Part shown: piece after piece, positions 3,402 to 60,786 of the stretch
Numbering within the stretch: the first letter of the stretch is position 1
How the letters are laid out: every line of letters begins with the position of its first letter
Origin: Cyanidioschyzon merolae
Taxonomy: Eukaryota
Assembly (NCBI GenBank): GCA_000091205.1
Contig: AP006501.2
DNA length: 64,000 nt
Reading direction: 5' to 3' (one strand)
Translations under genes and position numbers: made by a program
The notes under the pieces: generated by a model
Seen by the model: the letters and a program-made list of their open reading frames with translations, nothing else
What the model was told of the DNA's origin: nothing
Databases searched by the model: none

Positions 3402-6400
3402 TTACAGATACAGACGAATTCGCGATGTGATGGTCACTCGACACATGGGACACTCCGAGAGTTGCTCTGCGCATGGTTGACAAGTACAGTGTCCACAATT
3501 GTAAACAGTCCATTGAACGCATGGACCAGAATCAGCACACACGGCACATTCAGGTTCCATGTGTGCTCGAGTGTTATCGGCTTCGATGCTATGCGTCGAA
3601 CGCATGATGTCGGACTCGTCTAGCACCAGAACGCTGTCTGCCGCGGAGCGTGAACTATCAAACGGTGCCGAAGGGGCAGCAGATATCTCGGAATAAATGT
3701 CGCTACTGCTGCTTGCCCTCGAGTGGTGGAGGAGGCGGGAATCCTCGTCCTGGTCGGCACCTTCGGTATCCAGCGGTGGTGCACTTGCAGTTGCAGTAGA
3801 GCGCACCGGCCACCAGTCTCTGCTCAAGAGCCGGGGTAAAAACGCTGAACGTCGGTAGCTGGACGGCTGCGCACCGCTCTGGCGAAGCGACGTCGGCAAA
3901 AGCGTATCACCGTCGTCACCAGATAGCGCCGTCAGCTGGTTATCGAGCGATACCTCATTCGCGGCGGCAGGAGCGCAAATCGATGATGACGATGACGACG
4001 TCGACGGCGACAAGTGCTGGTGCGCAGCGCTTGCGGTTCTCGTGCTCGCCGAGGTGAGCACAGTCGCGGTGATACCATAACCATCAACACCACCACCAGT
4101 TACTTCCACATGAGATGATGTTTCCATCGAGTCGCCACCGCTCTGTGACGTGCTCGCGTTGGTGATTTGGGAGAACAGCGCACTGTTGTTGCTCGGCGGC
4201 GCAGGTGCGTCATCAGCAAGTTGTTGTTGCATCACAAGCGGATCGCTCTCAGCAGACCTGTTGTACCTGAATTCCACCATTGAGTCCCGATAAATCGGTG
4301 CTGTACTGAGCGAGGTCATGCTGGACCCTGTCGAGCTGGTGCCCCGCGCAGCCGACGGGGTGCGTTTGCGCAACAGCGGCGGCTGTGTGCTCGACGAGGT
4401 GCCTGCGTTAGCCTCGAACACGCCTTCGAACGTCCGATCCCCAAGATGAATGCTCCGCTCGTAGGCAAACGAGTTGCCGGTTTTCGTATCGGGCGTCGTC
4501 GCGTCCATGTTCTTGTACACATGAGAAGCCGATGCCGTCGGCTTCGACGTTTCTCCCGCTGAAACACCGTCGACGACGCCCATGCGAGCGCTGTATGCCG
4601 CGGCAAGTCGATGATTAGGTTCCCCAGCCAGCGCTGGAAATGCATTCTCGCAACCCGCTTGCCGGGCCTGACGCGTCCCCAACAACGAGGTCAGCACAAG
4701 GTGCGCCTGCGTCTGGCCGGTTTCGCGGGCGATATCCAGCGGGGTCGCCCCGCGGCTGTCGCGAGCGTATACCAGATCGCCTCGGGGAGCACCGAGCTCC
4801 ACAAGCGCCCGTAGCACGCTTTCCTGGGCGCCAGCTGCCGCTGCGACATGAAGTGGCGTCCGTCGGCGTCGATCACGAGCCCAGGGGTTGCTGCCTGCTC
4901 GTAGCAGCGCGAGGACAGTTGCGGCACCTGCATCCTGCTGCGCCAGCGCACAAGCGTAGTGCAGCGGCGTCTCGCCTCGGGTACCAAGGCCAATGGTGGC
5001 CGTTTCGAGCGCGAGCGCCCCTTGTTGACCGCCCCCAACAGCTTGTACAAACGCCTCGACGCCCTCGGCGTTTGCAAGCGCTGCAGCGGTATGCAGCGGC
5101 GTTCCGCCGTCAAGCTTGCGCCGGATATTCACATCAATACCCAGTGACACCAGACGACGAATGCAGACAACTGTGGCAAGGAAGTGACGATCCGGGCTCT
5201 CGTCGAGAACGCCGCTCAGCACTGCAAGTGAGCGGAGCTGCGCCTCGACAAGCGCCGCTCCAGGCGGCCGCACAAGGGCCGTGTTATTGGTGCTGGTATT
5301 GGTATTGGGATTGTTCGCGATGCTAGACTCCCACCAGCGCGTCGCCAGATGATGCATCAGTTTCCGCCCGATCACGAGGCGGCGCTGATCTTGAGGCAAG
5401 CGGGCTCCAAGCTGGAGAAGCCACAAGGCGAGGTCATAACGCTTTGCTGAAAACGCGATGGTTAGCGCAGTTTCACCGCTGTGGCTCGCCTGATCGATGA
5501 GCTTCGTTGGTGACAATGAAACCAGCAGGTTGCAGATGTCGGCGCGATTGCAGGTCGCTGCTGTATGCAGAGCGGTACGACCGGCACAGTCTTGCTGGAA
5601 CGGTGAGACGCCCGCCTCGGTCACGAGCCATAAAACGATGTCCGAATGCCCATACCGAGCAGCAACGTGCAGCACAGACGTGCCGTCGTGACGCGCGATG
5701 CTAGGCTTCGTCTTGCCCTCTTCGACCAGGAGACGCAACGCGACGAGGTGGCCAAACTTTGCCGCTGCATGCAGGGGCGTCCATCCTTCACCATTTGCGG
5801 CGCTTGGATCAGCACCATGCTGTAAAAGAAGTCGAATCATCTCGATGGAACCCTGCTCAGCAGCAATGTGCAACGGCGTCCATCCGCGGCGGGCACGAAC
5901 GTGTTGTGGACGGATTTTGCCCACTTCCAGAAGCAACCCGACAATCCCCAGCTGGTTTCCAGACACCGCAACCATGAGCGGCGTCCAGTCGTTGTGGTCA
6001 CGAGCGCGCGGGTCCGCGCCCGCTGCAAGCAGCATCCGACAGACCGCTTCGTGCCCGTTCCACGCCGCGATAAACAGCGGCGTCCAGCCGATGCTCGTGC
6101 GGCAGTTCACATCGGGCGGCGGTGCCGACTGATTGCGCTGCTCTGGGGAACGATATCGCAGCATCGCACGCAAGGTCGCAATGTGATCATTTTGCGCTGC
6201 TAAATAGAGTGCCGACGGGATGGCTCTTTCGCTTTCATCGAGCGTTGTGCTGGGTACGTCTCCTCTGCGCACTAGGCTAGGAATCATGCCAGACCTTCGC
6301 GAATTGTCGGTCGGCCCCGTCGTCACAGCGAGCTCTTTCCAAGCACCGAACTCGAGCAGCAGCTCCACAGCAAGCGTGTTACCGAAATATGCTGCCTGCT

Positions 6401-7579: not shown

Positions 7580-8228
7580 CCCGGGTGCCGTGCGACGCCC
7601 ACGAAGTGATCTTTTTCGATAACAAGACGTTTATATGGACCATGGATCCTTTGTTGCTGGATCGGTAATGATATTCGAAAGAGCATCGATCGTAGTGATG
7701 CAGATCATTTCCAAGTTCCATTACTTTTACTTCCTTTCCGATATAATGGTCGTTTGTGCGTTTTCGCGTACCGCGAGTACCTGCAGTATGCATCCGCTTT
7801 AGCGCTTATAGCGCAGGTCAGGATACAGCACGGAGACAGAAGGGCTTTTCCGTACCACGAAGGGCGTCGGCTGGAGGTCTAGTTTGCCCGACACGGTGTT
7901 GGAGTCCATGATCATGCTGGGAGCCTGCAAGCTGCGCAGACGGACGCACTGCATGCGGCAGCGTGAATGGATATCGTAGGGGTCCACTACGACCAGGGCG
8001 AAACCTAAACGCAGATTACCTGCTCCTAGTCGCTGAAAGAACAGCGTTGCGAATGAGTTGCGCACATCTCTCCACAGCACCTGCCACTGGTCGGGAGCAC
8101 GAAGCACAAGCTCGGCTGACTCGTCCGGCTCGCGAGACCTTCGGCCTAGAGGGTAAACATTCGACAATATGGTAATCGTTTCCCCCGTTTAACGTATATC
8201 GTAACTGGGGAAATAAATTGGTATTGGA

Positions 8229-10167
8229 TTGCCAGATAGTAGTGAGTTTCGGTTCTTTGTTCGATACAGTGCGGTCGACAGGCGCACCTGGGAGATCTGG
8301 CAGTCACGAGGGAACGAAAGCCACGCAGATTACCGCCTCAACGGTACTCGATACAGAGATAACGGGGATATTTATGCCTGCGGGGCGATTGAGTGCGTCA
8401 CGTACCTGAAGAAACATTTGACCATGAACCCCGAACGTTTCATGATACGCTCCATCTTTGCACTCTACCCAGGTCTCGTTCGCAAAGGGATATGGATTAT
8501 CGTCGATGGCATCTTTAACGATAGTAAGAATGAAGAGAAGATCGAATTCGTCGACGAGAAGGCATCAAGCAGGCGAAGGAATGAGGCTTCTGTAATCTGT
8601 GCGGCTGTTCAAGAGCATCGTGAAGTCTTGGGGCTGGCCAATCCAACAGAAGAGATATCAGAGTTGAAAAACGATGAAGAAAGATACCATCCCCTCATCC
8701 TGTGCTATTTCGTGTTTTTGGACGGAGAACTCGAACGCGAGTCCGAAACGGAGCTGGGCGTGCGGAAAAATGAACTGTCGGAGAGACGAAAGGCTCCGCT
8801 TCTGGGGAACCACGTCAGTGTCGTTCCGTTATACAGCATCAACTCGCACGTTGTGTCTATCAGTTCCAGAGTCCTTCATGGCATTATCAGGGAGATCTGT
8901 TCGGAATTCAGCGTAAGCAGGGAGGAGTTCACCGGCGAAAATCGGGAGACGTACTGGAAGAACATCTTCGATTCCAGACGTCAGAAAGTTAGCAAGCAAA
9001 AGGTATTTACTGGGATGATCGAAACCGATGGGGTAGCCATTTGTGTACACCATCGACACTTGAAGGTGGATCGTTCTATTATGTCTTCGGCTTCGCCCGT
9101 GACGACGAATGAAGATGAGAAGGGGGCGGGTCCTGCGACGCAGAAAGTGCATAAAAACGACTTTGTCGTTGGTGCGGCGAAGCATGAAGATGAGAAGGAG
9201 GCGGCTCCTGCGACGCAGAAAGTGCATAAAAACGAGTTTGTCGTTGGCGTGGACCCTGGGACTACGAATATCATAACCATCGCAGAATCCAAGCGTGCAG
9301 AAGATGGTATTTACGGCAACCTACGTCAGAAAGACATGCGTCTGTTGAGGTTCTCGAGAGCGAGATAGTATCGAGAATCGGGAAACATGAATGCGAGGAA
9401 GAAAATTGCTGCATGGAATGCAGGAATGAAGGAGCACCTGGAAGCTATGAGCAAGGTGACGAGCCGCGGAGCGGACTTTGACGCTTTTCGGGAGTTCATG
9501 GAAGTTCGCATTGCGCATTGGGATGCGCTGTGGGAGGAGTATACAAAGCCCCGGTGGGCTCGTTTGCGTATGAACCTGTACTGCGGGAGGCAGCGTGCAT
9601 TTGCGAATTTTTTCAATGCGTTGAGCGCCTTGAAGGAGGACGAAAGTCAGAGGCTCGTAGTAGCGTACGGAGCAGGGCGCTGGAAGACCCAAAAAGGGAC
9701 TAGGCCAGCTCCAACGACAAGAACGTACAAGGAATGTGCACGGCGTTTTGCTACGATACCGATCGATGAGTTCCGAACATGGTATACACACCATGAACTG
9801 GGGCGTACAATTCAGAGGGTCAAGATGGAAACGTGTCAGCGGAGCCCTGAGGATATAGCAAAGTACGGACCGCTGACGGAGGAGCAAATGGAAAGGCGAG
9901 CGAAAGTGCGAGGGCTACTTACATCAGTAAGTACAACCAACGACGGCAAGAAACGTATGGAGTTTGGGAATCGTGAATTTTAACTCCGCTATCAATATAA
10001 AGAGATGTGCGGTGATGGAAACAAGACCTCCGGCGTTGACACGAAGGAGTTTTGTGGGACAACCTCTCAAAGTGGAACTATATGAGAAAAAATTGAAGCC
10101 AATTGTAGGTAGCCAATCCAAAAAAGCGGGGAGGCGTCTGCACCTCAGTTGGAGACGTTTTATCTGA
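8229..10167 (+). pseudogene. TnpB/Fanzor-like RuvC nuclease gene, disrupted (in-frame TAG at 9366-9368, frameshift near 9975)
   Basis: RuvC-I-like motif [15 protein letters not shown] in ORF 8229-9368. RuvC-III-like motif NREFNSAINIKRCAVME spans the 9387-9983 and 9964-10167 ORFs. A degenerate zinc-finger region lies between them. The overall order matches TnpB. Confidence 0.65.
9111..9260 (+). repeat. Tandem 75-bp duplication (2 units) immediately preceding and including the RuvC-I strand
   Basis: The units are gaagatgagaagg(g/a)ggcgg..cctgcgacgcagaaagtgcataaaaacga(c/g)tttgtcgttgg.. repeated. Translated, they are [25 protein letters not shown] and [25 protein letters not shown]. The same duplication is present in copy B at about 42583-42732. 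Confidence 0.7.
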
Positions 10168-10255
10168 AGCGCGTTTGCCGCCACTACCGCATACCGCTGC
10201 GGCCAGTGTTTTTCTTTTGAGAGACGTTTGTTTTCAGGGGTGCTGTCCCTAGCAT
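10168..10255 (+). ncRNA. Conserved non-coding tail 3' of the Fanzor-like ORF; candidate omegaRNA scaffold / right-end sequence
   Basis: About 75 nt directly after the stop are conserved between copy A (gcgcgtttgccgccactaccgcataccgctgcggccagtgtttttcttttgagagacgtttgttttcagg) and copy B (43629-43695, gcgccggtcaccactactttgcactaccgaccacagcgtttttctttagaaaggcgttttttgtcgg). The similarity ends abruptly afterwards. Confidence 0.3.
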
Positions 10256-11306: not shown

Positions 11307-13164
11307 AGGTGCGCACGCCTGAGCATCGCACCGGTGCAACCTAGGCCTGGTCCGAGAACACGAGCTTACCTCTGCGTCGGAGTTGAGCGCTTGCCCACAT
11401 ACGACTGCGGTGCTCTACATGGGCATAATATGCCGCAGACAGGGACCAAAATCGTTCCAAACATCAATGTAGCTTGTTCGGTTGCTGTGGTGCCGCGCGA
11501 CAAGGCGACGTCGCTATCCGGCTCCTTCGAGGCCCTGGCAGTCTGGGCGTTTACGCAGACGCAGCATTTTCTTCGATGGATGGGAACAGATGTGAAACGC
11601 CTTTGCGATCGCGGTGTGGACTCTCGTCGAGCGCCTGTGTGATGTCGAAATCGTGCATGCTGGAGCGCATGCATTGGCTCGTGCTGCTGAACGCATAGGA
11701 GCGCCTTTGGCGTAAAACACTTTGGAAAAGGAGTCGATGACGCTTTCTTTTCTTCGAATCAGTCGTCTAGATGAGCGTGGCGGCATCGGCTGCGACCTGC
11801 AACCGGTTCAGGCTCGTGGTCGCTGCAGTGCGACCGGCTGGAATGCCAGACACCCTTCGAGCGTGCTCAGCGCTGAACTTTTCAGCGCCGGTGCTGCCAA
11901 CATCGCGTGTACCTCTGTCAGAAACGACAAATACCAACGCGCCCAAACATCTGCAAAGCTCCTATCCTGAGGCGGGACTATTACAGAGGAGTTGCTCAAT
12001 GAGGTCCGGAGAGGGCGGCTCCAGCGGTGGTAGCTGCAAGTGCGCTGCGCGCAGGCTGATCCAATGGCAACAGGTTTCGTGTCCGACAGCGTCGCTACAG
12101 TCGCGCAGGCAAACCAGGTGCTGGTCCCGACACACGTCGTACTCGCGAACGTAGACCGCCTGCCAAACCCGCAGCCGTGCCAGCCAGAGATGCAGATGCT
12201 GTCCAGTGAGCGACTGGCGCTCCAGCGGACGTACCACCTCCGGGCCCGATGCGGCCTGCCTCGAACCTGGAGGAGTAGCGACGACCGCTGATCCGTTCGA
12301 GGGCGCCAGGGGCACCGGCGCGCACCCTGCGGCGCGTCCACCAGGCGCGCAGTGCGCTGCTGCTGATGAAGCGTCCGCGTTCGACATGCGTACGCGGTTC
12401 TTGCGGCAGAAAACGCGTTTGGGTCGGCAGTGCCCCAGGGCATGCTCGGCGTGGAGCAACTCGTCACGGGATACGTGCCCCCATTTTACGAGCGCGCTAG
12501 CCCGATGGCTGCATGAGCGCGAGCAGTACCGGCCCGCGCCGAACGTGCCTGCATGCATCGTTCCGCAGACAACACATGCACGGCTACCTGGCCCAAGACG
12601 CGGAAGCCTGCGTCCACGCGCTGCTGCTGGGGCGCGTGCTGTACGCTTCCGCTGCTTTTCGCGATGTTTCCGCGGCTGCTTGCGCCGGTTCTCCATGGGT
12701 GCTGGTGCAGAGCTCTGCTGAGAGTGCGTCGGAGAGGCCCCGGCGACGAACCAGATGTCGCGTTCAACAGCATCGCACAAGCTTTCATCCTGATAAGCAT
12801 CCAACCATTGTTCCACTGGAGTCTGATCTGTAATGGGCGTTGCACGTGACATATGTGAATCCTATAGAAGACAAAACACAGGAAGAGATACGCGCGCGCG
12901 CTCGGAACCTGCATGTCGTCCGCAGGGGTGCACGCATGTTGTGCGCGTCACGGATCGTGCTGTGATGGCGCCATCTGCGTGTAGATTGCGAACGTGACAT
13001 ACGGATGATACGCTTTCAGCTCAATTGTATTCCGCATACGTGTGTGTGTGTGTCATGAAATGCTTTTTCATTGTGTACGGCAGATGCCATGAAACTGGGA
13101 TCATTTGGTGAAATAAAGTCTTAGGGAGGGGTACGGACATCAAAGTCGGGGATCCTGGAGAACC

Positions 13165-13615
13165 CGGCGTTGCCGGCTGCCAGAAAAACAAGGGAAGAAT
13201 CGTCATTTTGTCGAGTATCGAGCGAAGAAGAGCAAGTGAAGGAAAAGACGCAGAGGGGAAATATGCGAGAAAAAGTGTTTGCCCGACATGACGGTGACGA
13301 GACTCCAAAGGTACAGAGAGCGCGAATTCTAGCAATCCTTGCACTGGTTTGTTGAAATAGAAGCATGAAACGCAAGAAGTTGGTGAAGCTAGACGTCAAC
13401 GCCACAATCAATACAAGACAGTGTGCTTTGCTGAAGACGAGATCCGCGGAGCTGAGGCGGTCCAGCTTCGTGGGACATCCTCTGATACTCGAAGCGGGCC
13501 TGGAGAGAAAGTGAAGCGGATACCACGCGGCAATTCAAAAGAGGCTGAGAGGCGTCTGCGCCTCGGTATTCATTTATCCTCCATGTTCGTGATCTATTCT
13601 TTGTTTCATTGACAT
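13165..13615 (+). mobile_element. Internally deleted (MITE-like) derivative of the Fanzor-like element
   Basis: The 5' part matches copy B at 41240-41340 (gccggctgccagaaaaa...). The 3' part matches the C-terminal end of the gene and the tail: DVNATINTRQCALLKTRSAELRRSSFVGHPL corresponds to NREFNSAINIKRCAVMETRPPALTRRSFVGQPL, and ggaggcgtctgcgcctc matches. About 2 kb of internal sequence is missing. Confidence 0.55.
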
Positions 13616-15210
13616 GTCTATAGGATAGAACACGCAGACGTTCGCTGTATTTCTCCCCGTCAATATATCCGGAACTTTTCTTAGGTATTCCGCCCTGACA
13701 TTCAAAATATAGCAGCGAAGGCTCACGGGTGCATACGTAGCTTTTAGGGCTTCTAGCTCGGTCGTCATTTCGGAGCGGTACCTTCGACGCTTTGCCGATG
13801 ATCCTGATGACGTCCCGCGAACCAAGATGCTTCGCGACACTACGCAACAACGGATCCTAAAATAACCGATATCATGATGCGGTGCATACGTAGAGGCCTT
13901 CACTCGTCTCTTGTCCCTAGGCCGAGCGTCCTCAAATCACGCCTGCTGCACGTGTTCGATCTTTCCGGTTCAAGGCTACTCGACAGCGAAGCGATTCGCG
14001 ACGCTGGAACGACGATGAAACAACAGAAAACCCGATACCACCCTATGACAGTGCGTAGAGAAGCTCATGCCGAAAGTGCACGCAACGCGTCTCCTCAAGT
14101 AATCGATTTGCTTCGATAGAGGCATGTTCCGCTCTTTCTGGTTGACGTCGAAGGCGCGTTCCGCAGTCGCATCGTACCTGTCACAGGATTTGCGCCCAGA
14201 GGATGCCGTCTCTTCTGTATGTATGGGAATGAGGCTTGGAGTCGGACTCGAGTCACCACACAGAGATCACCTCCGGAATACATCCGTTCATTTACCGCTT
14301 CGCACCGGCGGAGCGTCGATGGATTGCGCACGCGCGACTTGTTCTCGAGCCCGAGTCTTCCTTCCGGAACCTATTTTATCATGGCCATGATCGCGTTCTA
14401 CAAACGCGCTTTCGAATGGAATAGCGTTCGCTTGCGTGTGCAACAGAGAAGAACCGCTCGCCGTGGGATTCCGCTGAAGATGCCCGTCATCGTTGCGTGC
14501 GTCACCGGATATGGAACCCGAGCACGACATGGAGTCGCGCGCTACGTACCCACCATGTGCACGTAACGAGCAGTGAAGCGAGCGCTCTTGTGCAACAGAG
14601 CGGCCCTTGGTGAAGCATGTGCGTCGGACACAGGAGCGCACTTGATCGCAGGCAAGGATCATGGCCGCAAAGGGTGCATCGACTCGATCGACAGAGAAGA
14701 TGAATTTGGCAGGCGACGTGTGCATGGCAACTTTCACCTGTGCATGAAATGCGTGAATAGCAGCCCATAGCTGCGAAAATGGGAATTTCATGTGGGCATC
14801 ACCATGCTTCGCCTGTTGACAATAGAGTTGAGGTAGCGGCAGCACTCGGCATGAGGAAAGATGGAGCACAGAGCGCGCAAAACGCACAAGCTGCAGAGAT
14901 AGCCGGCGGAAGCAGGTATCGATCATACTGAAAAGGTACCCAGACTTGACCGTCTGCTCTCGAGCGACTTCCCTGGATCCTTGCTTTCGTGGACTGGCAT
15001 AGGTGTGTGAAAATCGTGTCATTGCTTTGCGAGCCCGCTGGGTGCGCGCAATAGAAGTCGCACCCGCACTTGCTGCAGCGCTGAAGTTTGCAGCACAGTC
15101 GAGCTTGCAGGACGGAAACTAGACCAGAGTTGCCTCCAAGTGAGTCGCGCCCTACTGGCCGGGCTGCAACTGCTTGTCCGCCGTTCACAGCTCGCAGGTT
15201 CGCTGCGGCT

Positions 15211-19236: not shown

Positions 19237-20759
19237 CGAACAGAACACTGTACGCAATTGGGTGGATACAGCTCCTGGACACCGGCGAAGAACCTGACGA
19301 GAAACGTGCACAACGATTTGGATGCGGGGCAGCGCATTTGCAGCTCGCTGCATCTGTGCGAGCGCTGCAGTGCGCTTGGATTCGAGAAGCGGTGCGGCGC
19401 TCTGCGATATCAGGTACGGTACACCGGGGTCTTGGTGTCTCCCAGCGTCAAGTGAATGGTGAAAGATTCATATCCCGAGTGTCGCACGTACCTGCGTTGA
19501 GACAGGATCGCTCAGCAGCAGTGGGAGCACCGAGCATCGACATCGTGCAAGTTGTCTTCGGCGCCCGTGTTGCCAGATACAAGTGTACTCTGACGTGTGC
19601 TCCGCATGGACCATGCACAAATGTTTGGAGTGGTATAGCGTACATGGAGTCAAGGGAACGACGCTGCCCGCATTCATATGGAAAGCGTGTTTTAGAGGAG
19701 TGCAGCTGAAAAGGCACCGAGGCATACGCAGTTCTGTGTGTTGCTTACTGGGATGCGTCGCAGGGCTCCGTACCGCATGGCGTATTCTTGGAGATATTCG
19801 GACAAGTATATTTTTTCTCAGCATGTCATGCAGAGATCGTGACGTCACAACATACGCTGAGATATTCTCTATATCAGCATTTGCACAGTAGATAGGTTAA
19901 GAGAGATCTGCGTGATGAAAAGCAGCTCTACGTATTCTTGTCGTCAGCATTTGCGCAGTAGGGTATTCTAGGTGTATAAAAAAAGAACAGAAAATAACCT
20001 CTAACTGGCAATGCGACAACAGTGTCGCTCGACCTCTGTGGTAAGCGTTGAAAGAGGGAAAGGTTTCTATATCTTCGAAAGTTTACCCTCCAGGCAGAAT
20101 GTCCCGCGAGTCGGACGAGTCTGCCAGACCAGTGCTTCATGCTCTCCCTCAGTTGCGGGCGCTGTTGTGAGATCTACGCAGCTTGTCCGCAGCGCAGTTT
20201 ATTCTGGGACTTGGAGCGGGTAGCGTGCTTTTAGGCTTCGCCCTGGTCGCAGTGGACTCCTAGTGGATCGCTTCGCGCTGCCGCAGGCAGGGCGTCTATC
20301 TGCGAAGCTTGCAGGCTCCCAAAATGATTCTGTACTCAGACACCGTGTCGCGCAAACTACGCCTCGGGCCGATGTCGTCAGTGGTACGGGAAAGCCGTTC
20401 TCTCTCGGTGAAGCATCCGCAACAGCGGTTTGTGCAGCGATCGCGGACGATCACAGCAGGCACTCGGCACACAAGAGAACATACGAAACGACCAGTATAT
20501 CCGAGAATAACTATAAGTAATGGAAGTCCGAGGTAGGTGCAGCTTCATAGAAACTTTCCCGAAAGCCAGTATCCATCGATCCTGCAATCTGGGGTCTACG
20601 GTCAATGGATACCATGTTGTTGATTGAGAAAAACGGCGACCTCCTGGTCGCCACCAATACATTCAGAGCGTTCTCGTGGACTACACTTTACAGTGGACTC
20701 AGCGTTTCTATAAACACCAGGCTTGATCCGATTTGGTTCCACATTTGCATGGGTCTCTC

Positions 20760-25824: not shown

Positions 25825-26352
25825 ATCTCAGGCGCTTCAGCCGCGATGATGATTGTCTTCTTTTCCGATGACACAACACATTCACAGTGACCACGGATTC
25901 CAGACTTCGAACTGGATATTGACATTCGGGAAAGCGTCCATCATGTTGCCACACCTTACCTCCAAGTTCTATGATGCATACTTTCTTTCGGACGTGCTGG
26001 TCGTTTTTGTGCGTCCTATCGCGCGCCTAACCCTCTTTGAGCACCCGCCCCAGCACCTAATCCGCCAGAGCAGATACATCATGGAGACAGAACCGCTTTG
26101 CCATACCACGGACGATATCGTCTCGATGGTGCGGAAACCGAGGCGGTTTCCATTGGCCCGCACCCAGGTTGCAGCGGGTGCTGTTCTTCAATAAAATTGG
26201 ACCCAAGGCAACGCGTTCACTTGCAGATGAAAATTAAGTTTAGATCGCGCATAGGGATCCGAGACCTCGACCCATGCCTCGGAATCGTCCAGATCAAACA
26301 GAGTGAGCGGTGCATGGGCCCGCGGTGGTGCCAGCGCGTTCTTACCGCCGCG

Positions 26353-39965: not shown

Positions 39966-40382
39966 AAGAAGTGCCTTTCTGCGGAACACTGCGAACTGTT
40001 ATGGGTCCATGCGTCCACGCTGCACACGACCGTCGGTAGGACACGTGGCTGCACCGCGTTCCCCGTTCCAGTCCGGTCGATGCGGTACCGTCAACAACCG
40101 CACTGGAGACGTGCTCTTCCAGAGTTCTACCTACGCGTAAACTAAGACCGCGGCGGGTACGTGCGCTTCTTATGGACCCTCTGTGGGTACCCGGCAGAAC
40201 TCGCTAGCGGTCGGGTAACGAGCGCACCACTGCTACGGCTCCTGTACAGGGGCTTCGGCGACGGTGCCTGCGCACTCTCTTTTCTTTTCGCTCACCAAAC
40301 GTTTATGTTGTACCTGGATCCCTTATCGCGGGACGAGAACTGGCTATCGGGAAAACGCCCATCGTGATACGCCTCACCCTCA

Positions 40383-43300
40383 AGTTCCATTCCTTACAAT
40401 TCCTTTCGGATGTACTGGTCGTTTCATAGGTTGTAGCGAGCATCGAGTGCCCGTCGTGCTGCATCCACCTTGGCGCCTAGACAGCTGGTGCAGATGCACC
40501 TTAGAGACAGAACGGCTTTGCCGTACCACTGGGGGCTTCGGCTCGAGATGTGGTGCACCTGACACGGATTCGGAGTCCATCATCATGCTGGGGGCCTGGA
40601 AACTGCGCTGAAAGAGCTACCGTCTGCGGCAGCTCGAAGCGACATGCCGGGAGTCCACTGCGACCAGGGCGACGCCCAGACGCAGCCTAACTGCTGCTCC
40701 TAGTCCCAGAGTCGACTGCGTTGCGGACGAGGTGTTCAGGTCGCACCACTGCACTAGGCACAGGTAAGGGCGTGAAGCACTAGTCTTGCAGACTCGTTCG
40801 GATTGCGGGACGTTTCGCCCTGAAGGCAAACTTTCGAAAGTATGGAAACCTTTTCGCCCTTTTAACGGCTACCGTGGAATGGGACAGGAATCGTTACATC
40901 GTTTCTCGTGAATCGTTCGTCTCTTTCCTTTTTTTCTCCGAATAGCGCGGTCGATAAGCACACCTGCGAGATCACGCAGTCACGAGAGACGACGCGCATG
41001 TCGCCGATGAAGGGAAACGCGTTTCTAACTATGCTCTGACCTATTGCCCTACCGTACATGTTGTATTCGAATTACAGGCGTAGCGGAGTACAGTTTTTTG
41101 AGTTCAATCGCGTTTGAAACGTCAAGTAAGCATATTCAAGTGATGCTGTGCGGTGTATAGGAGAAGCGTTCAATGTGCGTTCTTTCGCAGAAAAAATTCT
41201 AAAAAAGGAAAGTTATGAGAAAGCAAGTCGACGATCGCGGAGGCGCAGTGTCGCCGGCTGCCAGAAAAAGAACGAAAAACGGTGCCGAGCCCAGGAGCAC
41301 AGGCAAAGACGATGAAGCAGAAGCGGGAGGCCCTACGTCAAAGGCCGCGGGAAAGACAACAGTACGACGAGACGGTGGTGAAAGCGTACCTTCGTAAACA
41401 TATCAAGGATGCCTACAAGGAAAAGTTGCGAGAGGCCATCAGAAACCGTGTCGAGTCGTACTCCACGAGTACGAAGAAGGCTTCGTCAGGACTGATGCAT
41501 ATGATGAACGAGATGCACGACAACGCGACGGACACCAGAACAGTCGAGGTTCCGGGGGAATTTTTCAACAAGACCTTTGCTCGTCACCTGATGGTCGGCA
41601 CAGGGGAGCCGTCGACAAACAATGAGCGAGTGCACGCCTTCCACGAAAACTTCGCGGGATTCGGCTTCGAAGGTGCATCGATACAAGGGTTACGGGGATA
41701 TTCACATCTACGGGCCGATCGAGTACCTCGCGAACCTGAGGAACCATTTGACCATGAACCTCGAAGGTTTCATGATAAGCGCCGTGTTTGCGCTCTACCG
41801 GGGCCTCTCTCGCGGGGAAGAGATGGGCCATCTTCGCTGCCATCACCAACGATCGTCAGCATGAACAGGCAATAGAATTTGTCGACAAGATGACATCACG
41901 CAGGAGCATGAATGAAGCATATGTGATCGGTGCAGCTATTCAAGAGCGTCGTGGTGACACGGAGGTAGGGGGTTGGATAGATACTTCACCTCGCACTGAA
42001 AAAATATCACAAAAAGTAAGGAAAGTAAAATGCGCATAATCGGAGAACGCTGGCCCAAGTAAACGTTTTGTCCATGGAAAAAAAGAGCATCGTGAAGTCT
42101 TGGGGCTGGCCAACCCGACAGAAGACGTGTCAGATATGAAAAAAGTGAGAAAAGATGGTACCCCCGCATCCTGCGCTACTTCGTGTGTCTGGACCGAGAA
42201 CTCGAACGCAAGGCGGAGATGGTGCTGGGTGTGTGGAAAAATGAAGAGTCGCGGAGACGGAACGCTTTCCCAATGGGGAAGTGCTTCAACGTGGTTCCAA
42301 TGAGCAACATCAAGTCACATTTTGTGACTATCGACCAAGGCGTCCACTACGGCAACATGAGTGAGATCAGTCCGGTGTTCGGTGTCAGCAGGGAGGAGTT
42401 CACCGGTGAAAATCGGGAGACGTACCGGAAGAGTCTCTTCGGTTTCAAACGTCTCAAAGTGAGCAAGCAGAAGGTATTCACGGGGATGATCGGAACCGAT
42501 GGCGTAGCCACGTGTGTACGCTATCGGAGGTTTGAAGGCGGATTGTCCAGTTCGGCCTTCGATATCGCCCGTGACGAAGCATGAAGAAAACAGGGAGGAG
42601 GATCCTGCCACACAGAAAGTGCAGGATAACGACTTTGTCGTTGACGCGACGAAGCGTGAAGATGAGATGGAGGCGGGTCCTGCTACGCAGAAAGTGCAGG
42701 ATAACGACTTTGTCGTTAGTGCGGATCCCGGGAACACAAATATCATAACCATCGCAGTACCCAAGCGTGCGGAAGATGGTATCAACGGCAACCTACGTCA
42801 GACGGCCCTGCGAGTTTTAAGGTTCTCGTGAGCGGGATGCTATCGAGAATCCGGTATGATCAATGCGAGGAAGAAAATTGAGACACGGAATGCAGGAATG
42901 AAGGATCACCTGGAAGCTTTGCGCGGAGTAACGAGCAGAGGAGCAGGCTTTGAAGCTTTTCCGATATTCATGGAAGGTCGCGTTGCTCATTGGGATGCGC
43001 TGCTGGAGGAGTATACAAAGCCCCGGTGGGCTCGTCTGCGTATGAATCTGTACGGTGGTAAGCAGCGGGCATTCGCCAAATTTTTCAGTCAGTTGAGTGC
43101 CTTGAAGGAGGACGAGAGCCAGAGGCTGGTAGTGGCATACGGAGCAGGGCGTCCACAAAAGGGTGCACACCAGCTCCGTCGACGAGAACGTACAAAGCGT
43201 GTGCACGGCGCTTTGTAATGATACCGATTGATGAGCTCCGAACGTCCTATACACACCACGAACTGGGGTGCACACTTGAGACGGTCGACATGGAAAAGTG

Positions 43301-43695
43301 CCAGCGGAGTCCTGAAGATATGAAAAAGTATGGAGCGCTAACGGAGGAGCAAATGGACAGGAGGGCGAAAGTTCGTGGACTACTCGCATTAGTAAGTACA
43401 ATCAATGGCAAGAAACGCATGGAAATTGTTAACCGCGACTTTAACGCGGCTACCAATATAAGGAGGTGCGCGGTGATGGAGAGAAGACCTCCGTACTTGA
43501 CAAGAGGGAATTTTGTAGGGAAACCTCTCGAGGTGGAATTATACGAGAAAAAGTTGAAACCGGTAGTAGGTGGCCGGTCCAAAAACACTGGGATGCGTCG
43601 ACAAGTCTGTAGAAGACTTTTCGTCTAGGGCGCCGGTCACCACTACTTTGCACTACCGACCACAGCGTTTTTCTTTAGAAAGGCGTTTTTTGTCG
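40383..43695 (+). mobile_element. Fanzor-like element, copy B: 5' module plus full-length but frameshifted nuclease gene plus conserved 3' tail
   Basis: Homologous to copy A along its whole length. It has an extra ~630-bp N-terminal coding segment (41010-41640) that is absent from copy A. Confidence 0.6.
41215..43628 (+). pseudogene. TnpB/Fanzor-like RuvC nuclease gene, disrupted (at least 5 frame changes and an in-frame TGA at 42829-42831)
   Basis: The N-terminus is basic and NLS-like (KQKREALRQRPRERQ...). The RuvC-I motif is [15 protein letters not shown] (42514-42831) and the RuvC-III motif is NRDFNAATNIRRCAVMERR (43218-43628). The coding sequence is split over ORFs 41282-41875, 41622-41864, 41788-42039, 42183-42584, 42514-42831, 42856-43218 and 43218-43628. 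Confidence 0.65.
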
Positions 43696-46323: not shown

Positions 46324-47680
46324 CCGCGTAGAATGAAACTGGAACAATGTTCCGCTCGCTCTGCACTCGTCTTGCGATTTGATTCGCAAAAGTTCTTGGA
46401 TGCACAGCATCGATACGCCAAGTGCAGCAACAACGGCTTACGGACTCAAACGTAGTTTTCGGGATTCTCGGTCGGGCGTTTTTCTCTCGGAGTGACCTGT
46501 TCGTCGTCCATTCACCGCTGGAATGCGTTCCGTCGCCAGATTCATGTTGAGTCGCGCCACCCTCGAACCAGCGTCCCTGGCATAACCTATTTTATGATCG
46601 AATGCATTGGGGCAAGCATCCATTCTTCTGATTTTTTCAAGTATGGGATGCTCAAATCGCGCATTCCTCAATATGTCGTATCTCTATGTTTCGGGGCCAT
46701 TGGTGGATGCAGCGATTCGCGGCCCCGGATTCACGACGGCTCAAGAGACGCGATGTCGTCTCCTGGACGCTTGTGCACCAGCTGATGCCCAGAGTTCGCC
46801 GCAATGGTCTCAGGTCAAACGATCGCTTCCGTTCGAAGCACGAGTCCGCCGCTCTGCACGGCTATCGACGAAACATCGTCCGGCAGCAACACGAGCCTCT
46901 CACGGGATATGCATTCGAAGGCTCCCATCGCTTTCATTTGCATGAACAGCGGTCTTGGACTCGGAGTCGAGACGTCGCAGGAATCGCGGCCAGTGGAGCG
47001 CTCGGTACCGTACGGCACGAGCGGGACGTTGACGGATCCAAGGCGTTTTGGCCTGCTTGCCGGCCTGGACTTGACGCTTACGGTACTTGTTGCACGGTGG
47101 ACGGCATCGCGTTCCCTAAACCCTCCTTCGGATGGAACGCGCTGCACTTGCGCGTGCAGCGCACACCGTACTCGCCGATGCGATCTGCCCTGACTAGCGC
47201 CCGTGATCGTAGCGTACGGCACCGGGCGCGGAAACGGCGGAGCGCATACAGGGGATCCCGCGGTACCCGTCAAGACCGTGTATCGAGCGATGAAGCGCGC
47301 CTTCAGATGACGCAGTGCAGGGTGTGGCGGAGAACGTGCCGCGCGCACACAGGAACTCGTGATACGAGTCAGGAGTCACGGCTGCACCCCAGGAAGGCTC
47401 GTGAATCGCAACTTGCGCCTGTACATGAAGTGCGTCGACGATACCGGGGAGCTGCGAAATCGGGACGTGCACGTTGGCCTCAACATCGTTCAACAGCTGA
47501 CGTCGGAGCTGGATGTGCGGGAGGTACCGGCGTTTATCACTCTGCAGGGAATTCGGAGAAAAGAAAGAGGCAGGCACAGAAAGCGCACGACGACGACGCA
47601 TGGATACGTAGCAATCGGAAGAATCGGGAAAGATAGGTTGTGGGCGCGAGATTCACCTCGTGGACCTGTCAAGATACATA
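46324..47680. repeat. Left arm of a 1.35-kb, ~99% identical inverted repeat
   Basis: Reverse-complement identity with 51523-52880 was checked directly on several stretches. Identical 316-aa ORFs (46686-47636 on plus, 51566-52516 on minus) differ at 2 residues. Confidence 0.85.
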
Positions 47681-51522: not shown

Positions 51523-52880
51523 ATCAATCTTGACAGGTCCACGAGGTGAATCTCGCGCCCACAACCTATCTTTCCCGATTCTTCCGATTGCTACGTATCC
51601 ATGCGTCGTCGTCGTGCGCTTTCTGTGCCTGCCTCTTTCTTTTCTCCGAATTCCCTGCAGAGTGATAAACGCCGGTACCTCCCGCACATCCAGCTCCGAC
51701 GTCAGCTGTTGAACGATGTTGAGGCCAACGTGCACGTCCCGATTTCGCAGCTCCCCGGTATCGTCGACGCACTTCATGTGCAGGCGCAAGTTGCGATTCA
51801 CGAGCCTTCCTGGGGTGCAGCCGTGACTCCTGACTCGTATCACGAGTTCCTGTGTGCGCGCGGCACGTTCTCCGCCACACCCTGCACTGCGTCATCTGAA
51901 GGCGCGCTTCATCGCTCGATACACGGTCTTGACGGGTACCGCGGGATCCCCTGTATGCGCTCCGCCGTTTCCGCGCCCGGTGCCGTACGCTACGATCACG
52001 GGCGCTAGTCAGGGCAGATCGCATCGGCGAGTACGGTGTGCGCTGCACGCGCAAGTGCAGCGCGTTCCATCCGAAGGAGGGTTTAGGGAACGCGATGCCG
52101 TCCACCGTGCAACAAGTACCGTAAGCGTCAAGTCCAGGCCGGCAAGCAGGCCAAAACGCCTTGGATCCGTCAACGTCCCGCTCGTGCCGTACGGTACCGA
52201 GCGCTCCACTGGCCGCGATTCCTGCGACGTCTCGACTCCGAGTCCAAGACCGCTGTTCATGCAAATGAAAGCGATGGGAGCCTTCGAATGCATATCCCGT
52301 GAGAGGCTCGTGTTGCTGCCGGACGATGTTTCGTCGATAGCCGTGCAGAGCGGCGGACTCGTGCTTCGAACGGAAGCGATCGTTTGACCTGAGACCATTG
52401 CGGCGAACTCTGGGCATCAGCTGGTGCACAAGCGTCCAGGAGACGACATCGCGTCTCTTGAGCCGTCGTGAATCCGGGGGCGCGAATCGCTGCATCCACC
52501 AATGGCCCCGAAACATAGAGATCCGACATATTGAGGAATGCGCGATTTGAGCATCCCATACTTGAAAAAATCAGAAGAATGGATGCTTGCCCCAATGCAT
52601 TCGATCATAAAATAGGTTATGCCAGGGACGCTGGTTCGAGGGTGGCGCGACTCAACATGAATCTGGCGACGGAACGCATTCCAGCGGTGAATGGACGACG
52701 AACAGGTCACTCCGAGAGAAAAACGCCCGACCGAGAATCCCGAAAACTACGTTTGAGTCCGTAAGTTGTTGTTGCTGCACTTGGCGTATCGATGCTGTGC
52801 ATCCAAGAACTTTTGCGAATCAAATCGCAAGACGAGTGCAGAGCGAGCGGAACATTGTTCCAGTTTCATTCTACGCGGGT
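51523..52880. repeat. Right arm of the 1.35-kb inverted repeat (reverse complement of 46324-47680)
   Basis: See left arm. The inner boundary is ...ctcgtggacctgtcaagat on both arms. The outer boundary is ccgcgtagaatgaaactgg. Confidence 0.85.
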
Positions 52881-54039
52881 GTAGACTCTTGATAATGCAA
52901 GGATCGGATTGCGCGCAGATGTGCAACGCGATACAGCTCGAAAGGCGCCGCATGGATACGATGAAGACGAATCATAGCGCAATCCGCTGTTTCATGTAAG
53001 CAGCACTCTGCTTCGACTCCCTCATGACGTCGGGAGGCAGCATTCTGTGCAGAGATGACAGCGGCCTCTGAATCGCATCAATTCCATACGAACGCAGAGC
53101 ACGATTCGCTGTGCAGACAAATGTTATGAAGGGTGTTGAGATGCTTGGAGGCGTGCTGGGCTGCCTTTGCTAGAGTGCTTACTTCCGTGCTGGTATCGAA
53201 AACATCATACACATTGTGTGGTGAAACGCAGTCTTGCAGCACCACTCCCTAGGCGAATACACATTCTGTAAGCGCGAGGCATCGAGTCCGTCTGGTGCAC
53301 CCGTGGATGCACCCGCTCATCACCATAGCGCATCTTGTGTAGGGACACGGTATAGGGGCGGGGGTTCCGAACGCGGTGCTTTTGCTCGATTGCCACCGTT
53401 TCGCGGATACGTGAACGTAAACTGGTCAGATCGACGAATTCGATGTGCCTTGGCGGTCCGGTTCAAAACCAATATTTGCTGATGCACAGCGGAAAGACCT
53501 GTCCACAAGAACCAATCCTAGAAGGTGTTTGAATGAACCCCGAGGCAGACATCCAAGACAGCTCGCAAAAGCCACCACCAAACATCACTAGGCATCTTAT
53601 TTGCAATCTTCATCGCATCTTGCATTCTACATTTGACGCAATTCAGTACCGACGCGCATGTCATCCCGAGAGACATGCAATCGAAGGAGCTGGACCCAGG
53701 TCGTATAGAGACGAGCCACTTCGCCTTTGCCCCATGGGAAGGACTAACGGATGCTTCCGTTTGTTTTCCCGAACTCATGGTTGGACTTCCGATACGCTCG
53801 ATGCCTCCGCATGACACTATAAAAACCAGATCATGACGTCTCCGAGCGCGCACCTCGTACGCAGGGCTCCATACCGACCTCCGGCGCCAAGAGAGAAGCT
53901 CACATCTTCCAGGTCGCTCGACTTGGATCCGATCGTCCTGCTCCAGCCTCCATAGTTTGCATGGCGACACATGGGTGTATCACGATTTTCGTGAGCATTT
54001 GTGGTAAGCTGCGGATCCGCATCCAGATGTCTCTGCTTG

Positions 54040-57365: not shown

Positions 57366-59869
57366 GCGACGTCTACGTACCTCGCCGGGGAACCAGCAGC
57401 AAGCATCGTTGTGGTGTGCGTCGGACCGAACGCTTCTCGATAGACGGGCTAGATTGGGTCCGCAGCGACGCCTTGCGAGCACCTTCACCAGCGGTATCTG
57501 GACATTAAAGGTTTGTATTCGGGAACGGAATGTTTGGATTGTACAGCATGCGGAGAAACTGCTGCGGCACGTATAGGGCTTTGGGGATAAGCGCAAAGGC
57601 GGGACCTTTGGTGCCGTTGCATTAAGAATGATAGTTTATTTTCTTATTTGCCGCGAAGGATTTGTTCTCCGTGGCCTAGGATGAGATCATACGATCTGTA
57701 AAGCTTCACACATGTTGTGCATGTTTCCAGGGCGACCGTGCTCGAGCGCCGAAGAAGGGTTTCGCAGGGTACTTGCACCGCAGCATGCATGGTCCGCGCT
57801 TGCTGCTCACCAATATTAAAAACCTCATCCATTGCCCATAGTGGCGTTGAAGGATCCAGAAAAAGCAAGTCCTGCTGTGTGCGTCTTGTGCCGATATGCT
57901 GCGGACGCGAACCTCCATGAGGAACGCGCTCAGGGAACGGAGAAAATTGCCCTTGCTCCGCAGTCATTCTAGGAAGGATTTATGGTTTTGGTCTTTCTGG
58001 CCTCTAGGTTGACACCTTTTGAGGATGAAAGACCTCGTACGCACGGGTCGTTCTCGCGGTGGTCCATGTGATTACCATGTCCATAGGTGGGATCGTTCCA
58101 AATCCAGCATCCCTTTCGGATGCGAAACGCTGCGGTTCGGAGCACTGATCTGGTGGTATGCATGTGGATACCGCGTTACCCGGTGACAACCAGGCTGTGA
58201 ATTTTCACTTTATGAAATCTGGCTCAGCATAGCACGCGAGTCGCTCATTGGTGCAGACGCTCACCCACATAGGTTCAAGCCACGTCAGGCAGCAGTGACG
58301 AGAGCGTTGCAGGCTATCGCGGCGGGACGCAGAAGCTGATGTGGCATAAACGTCCGGGAACGGCCTTGATGCACCGATCAAGGCTCCGTAGGTCACGCGT
58401 GGTAGATATGTATATGAAGTTGTAAAAGTTGCGAGTCTGGCGTCCGTGATCCATCTACAGCAGCGCCAGATTTGCATAGAAGACTGCACCGCTAGCGCTT
58501 CTTCTGCTTTTCGATTTTTCCGAACTGATGTTAGATGCAAAGCCTCGATATTTGAAGTGTAGCAATGAGGGCGTACGTTTTCGTGCGTAGTGCTAGAGAT
58601 CTCTGACCCATTCACGGAGAAGCGCGTTCGACGCTTTGCTGGCGGGATTCGTCACGTCACCGCTATCACGAAGATTCGCGATGTTCTCGAGCAAAACATT
58701 CATATCTATGTGGTGCAATTATTCAATGCATACGCACAAGTGTCCACTTGTCTCCCTTGAGTACGTCTAACATGCTCAAAACATGCATTGTTCAAGATTT
58801 GACCTTCTGTTTCAGGGAAACTTGAGGGCGCAACAGTTCGCACCGTTGGATTATCATGGAAAAAATACTCGACGTCGTTTTTTGAGGAATTCCTAAAAAG
58901 CTCATCCCGAAAGCTCACTGAACCCGTCACGTAAACTGCTCGATTCCGTTCGAAAAATGATTCTCTTCCCTTGGTAGTCATCAATGAAACGGCACTCGAC
59001 AGCCGTATGATACCCCTCGCAGGGCATGTTCTCAGAGACTATCTTCTCGACTGTTTCCATGGAAACCAGTCTTGGCACCAGACTTTGATCGCAACGATCG
59101 CTACCAGTGGAGCTATCGTTACTGCATGGCACGAGGAAAGGGTATACGGATCGACACTTTTCGACCTGTTCTCTAGACTGGATTTTGCCTCCGGTACTTG
59201 TTCCATCATGGACAACACCGCGTTCCGAAAAATCCGTCATCGAATGGAACGGCATGCGCTTCCATGTGCAGCGAAGCGTATACTTGTTAGGTGAATCGTC
59301 CAGAAGAAGGCCACGATCGCAGGGCACGGCACCGGATAAGAAAACAGATCAGAGCAATGAGAGCAGCTTTCTGTAACCGTGAACTGTGCGTATCGAGCAA
59401 TGGAGCAAGCGTTCACGCGCTACATTTGGGCCGGTTTGGAGGAAGTTTGACGGATATACTGTAGAGCTTGTCCACATTCAACTGTCACCGCTGTGAACGG
59501 CGCACCGAGGCTATGCATAAAGGAGATCGACCTGACGAACGAAGCATAGACCACAACTACCGCCTATCCGTGGTATGCATCAACAACCTCCGGAATCAGC
59601 GTCATTGAAACCTGAGCGCTACCGTCAACTTCCCTCGACTGCGGGCAACAGATCTGTAGTGGAAGAGGCGACCGGCTGATTGAATGCCGAAGATAGTAGG
59701 GTTGAAGCGCAGGCATTCTTAGAATAAAGCTCTTAAATTCTTATGTTGATGATAGTGGGAAGATAACCACACATTCGTGTGTTCGTCTGGGGAAGAGCCT
59801 ATGTCCTAGTTTAGAGTAACATGGCAGTGAAGCGAAAAATGTACCATGACGATATGGGGTAAATTAATA

Positions 59870-60090
59870 TCCACTCACAGGCACCCCGCAGCCTTTTTCG
59901 ACCAGCCCCCTGTTATCGGCTTCAGCTTCTCTCCGTACACTTCGAGCCCGAGAGGCTACCCCACGGAGTTGGATGGCGCCAGCTCCTCGGATCTCGTCTT
60001 CAGCACTAGACATCATCTCATCTTGATGGCGGCGTTGAAGTCTCGGTTCACAAACTCCTTGCATCCATTGCCGCTGGTGGAACACATTCA
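59870..60090 (-). mobile_element. Solo 3'-terminal fragment of the Fanzor-like element (minus strand)
   Basis: The reverse complement encodes STSGNGCKEFVNRDFNAAIKMR, a RuvC-III motif. It continues with homology to the copy A/B C-terminal coding and tail sequence (gctgaagccgataacagggggctggtcgaaaaaggctgcggggtgcctgtgagtgga). Confidence 0.5.
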
Positions 60091-60786
60091 TGCAAGGATT
60101 CCTTGAACTCGCGCCCTCTATGCCATTACAGTCTCGTAATCCTTCTATTGGGCAAACATATTTTTGTTTGCCTATCTCCCCTCCCCCTCTTCCTTTTCGA
60201 TATATGCTCTTCTTCACTCGTTAGTCGGCAAGAACAGAAACGTTTATGTGTTTTTCCTGCAGCCCGTAATGAAGGCCCTCCACCATCCCCGACTTCCATG
60301 TCCATACCTCTCCCTTGTATTTTTCATTTCTTCAAATGAACGTACTTCGAACACATCTGCTATAAACAGCGAATAAGCGTTTGATGATACGCTTCTTGAG
60401 ATGGAACCTAAATGAATCGAAAGAGTAGAGGAGCCAGACGGGTATGAGGTCGAAACTAATCTGAAACAATTTAGTATAAAATTTGCAACTGCGGTACGCT
60501 GGACCCCCGCGATCGCTATGAAGCGTTCCCCGAAATCATTTTCATACCAGTAATTCTCTTACTTTAACCAGAGGCCAGACTTGGCGCGGTACGAGATTCT
60601 CAGGCTCTTCCTCTAAGTTTCTCAGTGGAACAGGGACCGACGGCGTCACTGTTGCTGTTGCGGAAGAGTCCGAGCTCGTGCTTCGTCTGTGGCTTTCGGA
60701 CGCGAAACACTTGTTGCTAACAGGCAGCTCACACACACGCACAGGAGCGTACCAGTGCTCCGCGACGTACGGTGATACTCGACTGC

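Follow-up and report, generated by a model that had tools for sequence, protein, structure and literature searches.

The described system closest to the short element considered here is CMe-1A of Cyanidioschyzon merolae, whose ~150 copies are each ~80% identical to their consensus of 3169 bp (Bao & Jurka 2013, PMC3627910). CMe-1A encodes a 734-aa Fanzor1 protein, and CMe-1 was classed as Fanzor1, while the transposon class of the element was unknown, terminal inverted repeats (TIRs) were absent and target-site duplications (TSDs) were undetermined; its 5′ 635 bp correspond to a separate repeat, TE-N2_CMe (PMC3627910). Other described carriers of Fanzor1 include CRe-1/2/3 of Chlamydomonas reinhardtii (Helitron2 group), which are internally deleted, 5′-truncated and non-autonomous, and the Mariner-Fanzor1 elements of Pythium, with PUl-1 and PGv-1 as examples of Mariner/Tc1 carriers (PMC3627910). 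The guide RNAs of TnpB and Fanzor stem from the ORF 3′ end together with the right end of the element, the guide itself falling outside the element (PMC10530073; bioRxiv 10.1101/2023.08.09.552727), and in Fz1 scaffolds one or two stem-loops before the guide can suffice (PMC11423790).

The stretch of DNA analysed here (64,000 nucleotides, hereafter the window) is part of C. merolae 10D chromosome 19 (1,282,939 bp). Three of its ORFs exactly match the C. merolae 10D proteins BAM82807 (eS1), CMS518C and CMS174C, and its gene content, with few introns, is eukaryotic (an ankyrin/RING protein, TPS-TPP, GluRS, DDAH, Cpn20 and eS1). Scans of the window with Rfam and for tRNAs gave no matches. Two long copies of CMe-1A, A and B, and two short repeats, S1 and S2, are found in this window and are compared below.

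The Fanzor1 parent copies

Copies A and B, both on the + strand, match the published CMe-1A consensus and CMe-1 protein (Bao & Jurka 2013, PMC3627910), are 78% identical to one another over 1.6 kb in a self-comparison of the window, and are both disrupted by frameshifts and stops. The Fanzor1 pseudogene of copy B (40381–43694), identified by its match to the published consensus (PMC3627910 supplement), comprises a TE-N2_CMe-like 5′ part (40381–40941) followed by the core (40942–43694), and the pseudogene of copy A (7712–10235) is missing ~650 bp of the 5′ part of the core. The repeat with which the CMe-1A consensus starts, U, which corresponds to TE-N2_CMe, is found at 7712–8313 and 40381–40941, alone at 20525–19978 (− strand) and in part at 25963–26153. 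The limits of the full-length core are sharp across many independent loci (L001 9671 and 12416–12431, equivalent to B 40942–43694). Upstream of the core, at least three different modules occur in related loci, all joining at L001 9671. A foreign 130-bp insertion in copy B (41954–42083) belongs to a third small repeat family, which occupies 20 places in the metagenome loci described below and also lies directly upstream of some full-length Fanzor cores (e.g., L041 and L053).

Within the Fanzor ORF, a ~75-bp tandem repeat is located at 9098–9249 and 42570–42724, and the number of units varies among copies and proteins, P0006 and P0014 being examples with more units. One contig that is 96% identical to the window (L081) carries a different CMe-1A 5′ part with a longer ORF upstream of 9098, at this tandem-repeat region; the comparison over 8314–9098 suggests recombination between CMe-1A copies.

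Intact relatives of the parent gene were found in hot-spring metagenomes, for example the 752-aa protein P0001. A profile of the full-length Fanzor proteins had a sole match in the PDB, SpuFz1 (8GKH, E 0.0024), which was reached by the profile search only, phmmer of P0001 against the PDB giving no match; neither P0001 nor the stitched Fanzor protein matched a family in Pfam. The RuvC triad is invariant in the protein alignment of the parent gene (A5), with D484 (DPGNTN), E656 (VDEFRTS) and D725 (NRDFNAA). By this D…E…D triad and by its similarity to a known Fanzor1, the parent gene represented by A, B and their relatives is a Fanzor1/TnpB gene.

S1 and the dispersed short family

A first-pass annotation described, from 13165 onwards, a short derivative of this element in which a 5′ coding stretch of the Fanzor gene is joined to its last codons. 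That architecture is borne out by two blocks, collinear and in the same orientation, which meet at one junction, but the unit begins ~150 nt further upstream, at ~13013, as seen from its match to S2 and from an alignment of 19 copies. S1 as a whole occupies 13013–13615 (+ strand, ends to about ±5 nt). In the 19-copy alignment the limits of the unit are CTTTCAnCTCAATTG on the 5′ side and GTTTCACTGAC on the 3′ side, where similarity stops, and nhmmer matches S1 over 13094–13611 (E 8e-130).

All parts of S1 lie on the + strand. The 5′ leader (13013–13132) is homologous to the sequence preceding the Fanzor start codon in CMe-1A (B ~41095–41215). It contains a (GT)7 microsatellite at 13041–13054, which is absent from the other short copies. 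The leader is followed by a remnant of the first ~56 Fanzor codons (13133–13310), recognised by alignments that include the CMe-1 N-terminus (PMC3627910 supplement) and containing a 17-mer common to S1 and B, gccggctgccagaaaaa; its start codon is mutated from ATG to ACG (13133–13135). The deletion junction at 13311–13316, placed by comparing the consensus of the short family with the full-length 5′ and 3′ consensuses, sits between …DEMVV (codon ~55) and …RRAKVRG, ~82 codons before the end of the gene, and about 585 codons are missing there, including RuvC-I, RuvC-II and the zinc ribbon. A remnant of the last ~82 codons (13317–13559) then carries the RuvC-III motif DVNATIN (13392–13412), one in-frame stop and one frameshift. 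The peptide DVNATINTRQCALLKTRSAELRRSSFVGHPL, already noted in the first-pass annotation, is encoded at 13392–13484 and aligns with the RuvC-III end of A and B, NRDFNAATNIRRCAVMERRPPYLTRGNFVGKPL. Homology to A and B ends at GGCGTCTGC (13551–13559), so the tail is not shared with the gene as had been proposed: the last ~55 nt, at 13560–13615, form a tail specific to the short family, without homology to the CMe-1A tail. In the consensus of the family this tail forms two stem-loops, GGGTA…TACCC and GTGAAAC…GTTTCAC.

The 3′ block of S1 (13292–13567) aligns with A 9871–10149 (62% identity, E 4e-18) and with B 43350–43599 (60%, E 6e-13), and a profile of the short family run against a 1-Mb database recovers B 43361–43638 (E 1e-42) and A 9898–10149 (E 2e-37). 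The 5′ block (13073–13196) aligns with B 41153–41277 (66%, E 1e-8), and the same profile and database give B 41174–41323 (E 4e-13); this block has no counterpart in A because A lacks ~650 bp of the 5′ part of the core. S1 is not a functional Fanzor1/TnpB gene and encodes no nuclease, since only the RuvC-III motif remains, the ATG is lost and the reading frame is broken by a stop and a frameshift.

The second short copy, S2 (59819–60400, − strand), carries five in-frame stops and is matched by nhmmer over 60347–59825 (E 1e-144); S1 13050–13617 and S2 60390–59819 are 68% identical across the junction. Further copies were sought in hot-spring metagenomes, where a scan with the C-terminal peptide gave 78 loci (L002–L079; 0.94 Mb of contigs), whose flanks were searched with BLAST and nhmmer for matches spanning the junction. 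The 23 such matches found by nhmmer represent 19 distinct places, namely S1, S2 and 17 sites flanking loci L002–L079, the 21 matches outside the window having been reduced to 17 by merging the same locus seen in two samples. The samples holding the additional copies also hold 99% identical copies of the window, and the contigs probably come from C. merolae-like genomes.

All 19 copies have the same junction, the same tail and the same specific residues, for example LKTR(P/S)EEL where CMe-1A has MERRPP. Their flanks are unrelated beyond the ends of the repeat, and conservation falls at both ends of the alignment. Because the junction and the specific changes are common while the flanks are unrelated, copying took place after the deletion. 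The short repeats, hereafter S, are thus a real dispersed family, copied to many loci, and with their collinear 5′ and 3′ blocks and their one common junction they are an internal-deletion derivative of a Fanzor1 element. In this respect the first-pass annotation passes the test that it had set itself, namely that further short derivatives should exist and that the two blocks should not be unrelated fragments with an arbitrary junction.

The first-pass annotation placed S1 in copy B's family. Alignment between the consensus of S and that of CMe-1A is confined to two stretches, one of 190 nt (~74% identity) whose first letters, TATAGnTTTTCA, lie ~160 nt into the core, and one of 245 nt (~76%) ending at GGCGTCTGC. 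Because the two consensuses are 74–76% identical in these blocks while CMe-1A copies lie only 8–19% from their own (3′) consensus, S is attributed to a sister lineage. S lacks the first ~790 bp of CMe-1A, i.e., the 635-bp TE-N2_CMe-like part (U) and ~160 nt of the core, and its tail of ~55–65 nt is unrelated in sequence to the ~95-nt tail of CMe-1A. With different termini and this level of identity, S does not derive from CMe-1A specifically, and the proposal that both termini of the element were kept must be abandoned. S resembles CMe-1A in residing in the same genome, in sharing the leader and the first ~56 and last ~82 Fanzor1 codons in the same order, in being without TIRs or a recognisable TSD and in being old (~20% or more from the consensus), and differs from it in its tail, in its missing parts and in its length of ~600 bp against 3169 bp.

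Longer pieces of the S-lineage gene survive, as L031 covers FL 11497 to the end at 69% identity; at L031 5234–6136, the first 45 nt of a CMe-1A-type left end are joined to S-type sequence running from FL 11497 to the end. S is a new short deletion derivative, belonging to a sister lineage within the known C. merolae Fanzor1 element group, and no short deletion derivative of CMe-1A is mentioned in Bao & Jurka 2013 (PMC3627910).

The S copies are heavily decayed. In-frame stops interrupt the C-terminal block in 17 of the 19 copies, with frameshifts in the other two, and substitutions relative to the consensus amount to 0.229 at the first, 0.210 at the second and 0.238 at the third codon position, showing no bias among positions. 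The copies lie ~22–25% from the consensus, with changes spread fairly evenly over the element and most frequent in the tail (0.37; mean 0.25). S1 is present, at 99.2–99.5% identity, in each of the 15 orthologous metagenome contigs that extend to it; no empty site, and hence no insertion-site polymorphism, was found among these contigs, in which the exact ends of S1 were not obtainable. The copies have decayed neutrally, and there is no sign that the family is active today or that selection acts on a protein or RNA. A possible in-frame mini-protein was also considered, as the consensus of one group of copies (group 1), translated by hand, reads as a ~150-aa fusion that hinges on the length of a poly-A run. 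This candidate was rejected, the consensus of all copies being frameshifted at the poly-A run, the copies showing stops and no codon bias, and Pfam giving no match.

Ends, linked transposases and the copying of S

No inverted repeats were found at the boundaries of S1 and S2, and the left end of the S consensus shows none when compared with the reverse complement of the right end (z = −1.3). Likewise, no flanking direct repeat was found at S1, at S2 or in the 19-copy alignment, whose members are ~25% decayed, and a target-site duplication, which the first-pass annotation suggested looking for, is not recognisable. Two impressions gained by eye were discarded after alignment against shuffles: a likeness between the ends of S and the inverted repeats of the neighbouring R family described below (z about 0), and a pairing of the S left end with the right-end hairpin (z −1.3). 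The label "MITE-like" is therefore apt only loosely. S is short (~600 bp, below 800 bp), non-coding (with stops or frameshifts in all copies) and multicopy (19 copies in ~1 Mb), but, lacking TIRs, it falls outside the strict definition of a MITE.

The S lineage has a linked transposase remnant. In seven or eight S copies, all of them outside the window, ~870 additional bp lie between S positions ~80 and ~190, with unchanged ends, and the consensus of this segment encodes a helix-turn-helix and a DDE_3 domain (DETSF…LLLDN…NPIE; PF13358, 50.7 bits against a cut-off of 28.6). In L017 and in L007/L027, another deletion connects the same transposase to the Fanzor 3′ end. The positions of these other derivatives are L017 3589–4993 (− strand) and L027 6318–6866, with the breakpoint between transposase and Fanzor at FL 11993. 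From the transposase in the longer S copies and in L017 and L007/L027, it follows as a lead that a form with a left end, a transposase, a full Fanzor gene and a right end may once have existed, comparable to the Mariner-Fanzor1 elements of Pythium. However, both CMe-1A and the short S are uninterrupted exactly where the transposase segment sits in the longer copies, and the transposase-bearing form could be a secondary chimera. All transposase-bearing copies of the S lineage are degenerate.

DDE_3 elements would be expected to have TIRs and TA duplications, which their transposase needs and makes. As regards membership of the Tc1/mariner/IS630 group, the DDE_3 domain is present in the related longer copies of S, while TIRs and TA, both of which R shows, were not found. 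The longer S relatives resemble PUl-1 and PGv-1 in holding a DDE_3 remnant upstream of a Fanzor remnant within one repeat unit, but PUl-type elements have 24–33-bp TIRs and TA duplications, and S and its longer relatives show neither. A DDE_3 (Tc1/mariner/IS630-type) enzyme is the most concrete candidate for the partner of S.

The 3′ end of these elements is more constant in its presence than the 5′ end. Full-length copies are often 5′-truncated, at varied points (11919, 11993, 11760, 11373, 10437 and 10363), with the 3′ end intact, and no clear 3′-truncated copy was found among those aligned. Because the 3′ end is always kept while the 5′ ends are often truncated, the copying of S most likely depended on a 3′ hairpin end recognised by an enzyme acting in trans. 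A subterminal 3′ hairpin, which is a Helitron-like feature, is present in both the S consensus and CMe-1A. The CMe-1 copies studied here show the same 3′-anchored pattern and terminal hairpins as CRe-1/2/3, with the difference that the transposase remnant linked to S is DDE_3 and not RepHel.

Among the 47 full-length 3′ ends, the terminal hairpin of CMe-1A occurs in at least three versions that are unrelated in sequence and occupy one position, CGTCGTTCGA/TCGAACGGCG, AACGTTTTTC/GAAAAGCGTT and a long GC palindrome in L032 (sites at L001 12330–12431 and at 10180–10235 and 43640–43694 of the window). At this terminus it seems to be the structure, rather than the sequence, that was kept.

Short derivatives are also reported from bacteria: PATEs and tnpB-only IS200/IS605 derivatives, familiar from Meers et al. 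2023 and earlier IS605 work, are said to be without TIRs and TSDs. Like S, they reportedly are short and non-autonomous and retain hairpin-bearing ends, together with some of the ωRNA region, of an element that carries TnpB. We know of no Y1 TnpA partner in C. merolae.

The element adjoining the 3′ end of S1 (13612–15006, + strand) is not part of S1 and belongs to the Tc1/mariner-type family R, of which other copies in the window are located at 46324–47675 (+), 51527–52885 (−) and 58454–~59818. R is ~1.4 kb long and was found at 46 places in ~1 Mb of loci. Its consensus has 25–29-bp inverted repeats, CACCC(G/A)TGTCAGA(T/A)TAAAATGGAAC, with TA flanks, and encodes a fusion of a DDE_3 remnant (33 bits) with the C-terminal part of a TnpB/Fanzor protein, in which a zinc ribbon (PF07282, 31 bits) and the motif NRDLNAAINI are recognised. 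The R transposase and the S-linked transposase are 26% identical (E 4e-14). R is another deletion derivative of a transposase-plus-Fanzor element, and its TnpB-like part is unrelated to that of CMe-1A. A 316-aa ORF in R (46686–47636) was dismissed as a spurious frame, the real coding remnants being visible in the consensus only.

In S1, S2 and L045a, the S 3′ end and the outer end of an R inverted repeat are 0–10 nt apart, R occurring in both orientations, and the S copy of L043 is followed by a truncated R (window 13607–13635 and 59800–59830; L045 ~5340–5400; L043 ~2705–2720). At 46 R places per Mb, ~0.2 of 19 S copies would be expected to abut R by chance, and abutment is observed far more often. 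Two of the R copies, 46324–47675 and 52878–51527, are 99.6% identical and inverted, and bracket ~3.9 kb containing Cpn20 (double Cpn10) and eS1; the remaining R pairs show ~58–62% identity, and the near-identity of these two suggests recent gene conversion or an inverted duplication. A strain difference was also seen at R, where the L087 and L097 contigs are 99.3–99.4% identical up to 14975 and then diverge inside the right end of R.

We regard it as likely that S1 is a dead copy of a non-autonomous ~600-bp family whose founder arose by internal deletion in the sister lineage, spread, and left copies to neutral decay. The founder would have come from a Fanzor1-carrying element of that lineage, in which an internal deletion would have fused codon ~56 to the last ~82 Fanzor codons. 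About 160 nt would additionally have been lost at the 5′ end, and the gene leader and the lineage's own hairpin-bearing 3′ end would have been retained. The founder would then have been copied to many loci, through the 3′ hairpin end and an enzyme supplied in trans, and the copies would afterwards have decayed neutrally. That S never moved, S1 and S2 being two full-length copies deleted in place or the products of segmental duplication, is extremely unlikely. Both do lie in a repeat-rich part of the chromosome, beside R elements, but 19 copies share junction, specific residues and tail, their flanks are unrelated beyond the S ends, and the adjacent R copies are oppositely oriented at S1 and S2. 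It is also unlikely that S is a classical Tc1/mariner MITE, cut and pasted by the DDE_3 transposase, whose TIRs and TA have decayed from view. The DDE_3 remnant between the same ends in the longer S copies would agree with such an origin, Fanzor1 genes are known inside Mariner elements (PMC3627910), and the neighbouring R family demonstrates that such elements, with clear 25–29-bp inverted repeats and TA, live in this genome. However, the S consensus, which should restore decayed ends, reveals neither an inverted repeat between left and right ends nor any R-end likeness, R copies at comparable pairwise divergence still show their inverted repeats plainly, and in CMe-1A too no TIRs or TSDs were found (PMC3627910).

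A different account starts from the retained 3′ end. S would have been kept and spread as a guide-RNA satellite, a carrier of an ωRNA-like 3′ module made of the ORF end and the stem-loop tail; a full-length CMe-1 Fanzor would load the S RNA and cut sites matching the sequence by the S 3′ end, and homology-directed repair would copy or retain S. S retains exactly the ORF 3′ end and right end in which Fanzor and TnpB guides are encoded, the block GGCCGGTC…GGGAGGCGTCTGC is common to S and CMe-1A, the S 3′ end adjoins the same sequence, an R inverted-repeat end, in 3–4 of 19 copies, and the tail of the S consensus folds into stem-loops (z −2.45), as does that of S1 (z −2.23), the CMe-1A consensus tail giving about −2.4. 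On the other hand, the S2 tail does not fold more stably than shuffled sequences (z 0.27), S contains no strongly conserved region and is most diverged in its tail, and RNAalifold, applied to the 47 full-length 3′ ends, yielded −2.6 kcal/mol, few compensatory changes and no convincing common structure. Moreover, the S tail is unrelated to that of CMe-1A, so that present-day CMe-1A proteins need not bind it. Taken together, such a satellite appears quite improbable. In its specific form, in which S would be, or would have been, a guide-RNA-only hitch-hiker of the Fanzor nuclease spread, with the flank as guide, by RNA-directed cutting at the many R ends and repair from an S template, the proposal is very improbable on our analysis.

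Meaning of S for the Fanzor elements of C. merolae

The first-pass annotation also implied that an active transposase or partner had acted at some point. The present data do not point to one: every S copy is decayed, S1 is fixed in all orthologous contigs and the linked transposase remnants are degenerate. S1 is a dead, old and ordinary transposon fossil, and S itself, as the routine fossil of a transposon family already described in C. merolae, is of modest value to specialists. Its interest lies in the parent system, as CMe-1A has been without a transposon class since 2013 and the short family and its longer relatives bear on that assignment. They reveal a sister Fanzor1 lineage of C. merolae that was physically linked to a DDE_3 transposase and that spread with its 3′ hairpin end always retained, and C. 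merolae holds in addition a second, unrelated mariner-plus-TnpB-like relic, R. These findings also define a set of right ends on which the question of guide-RNA production can be asked. Together, they supply concrete candidates for the way in which Fanzor elements travelled within a eukaryotic genome that is very small and well finished.
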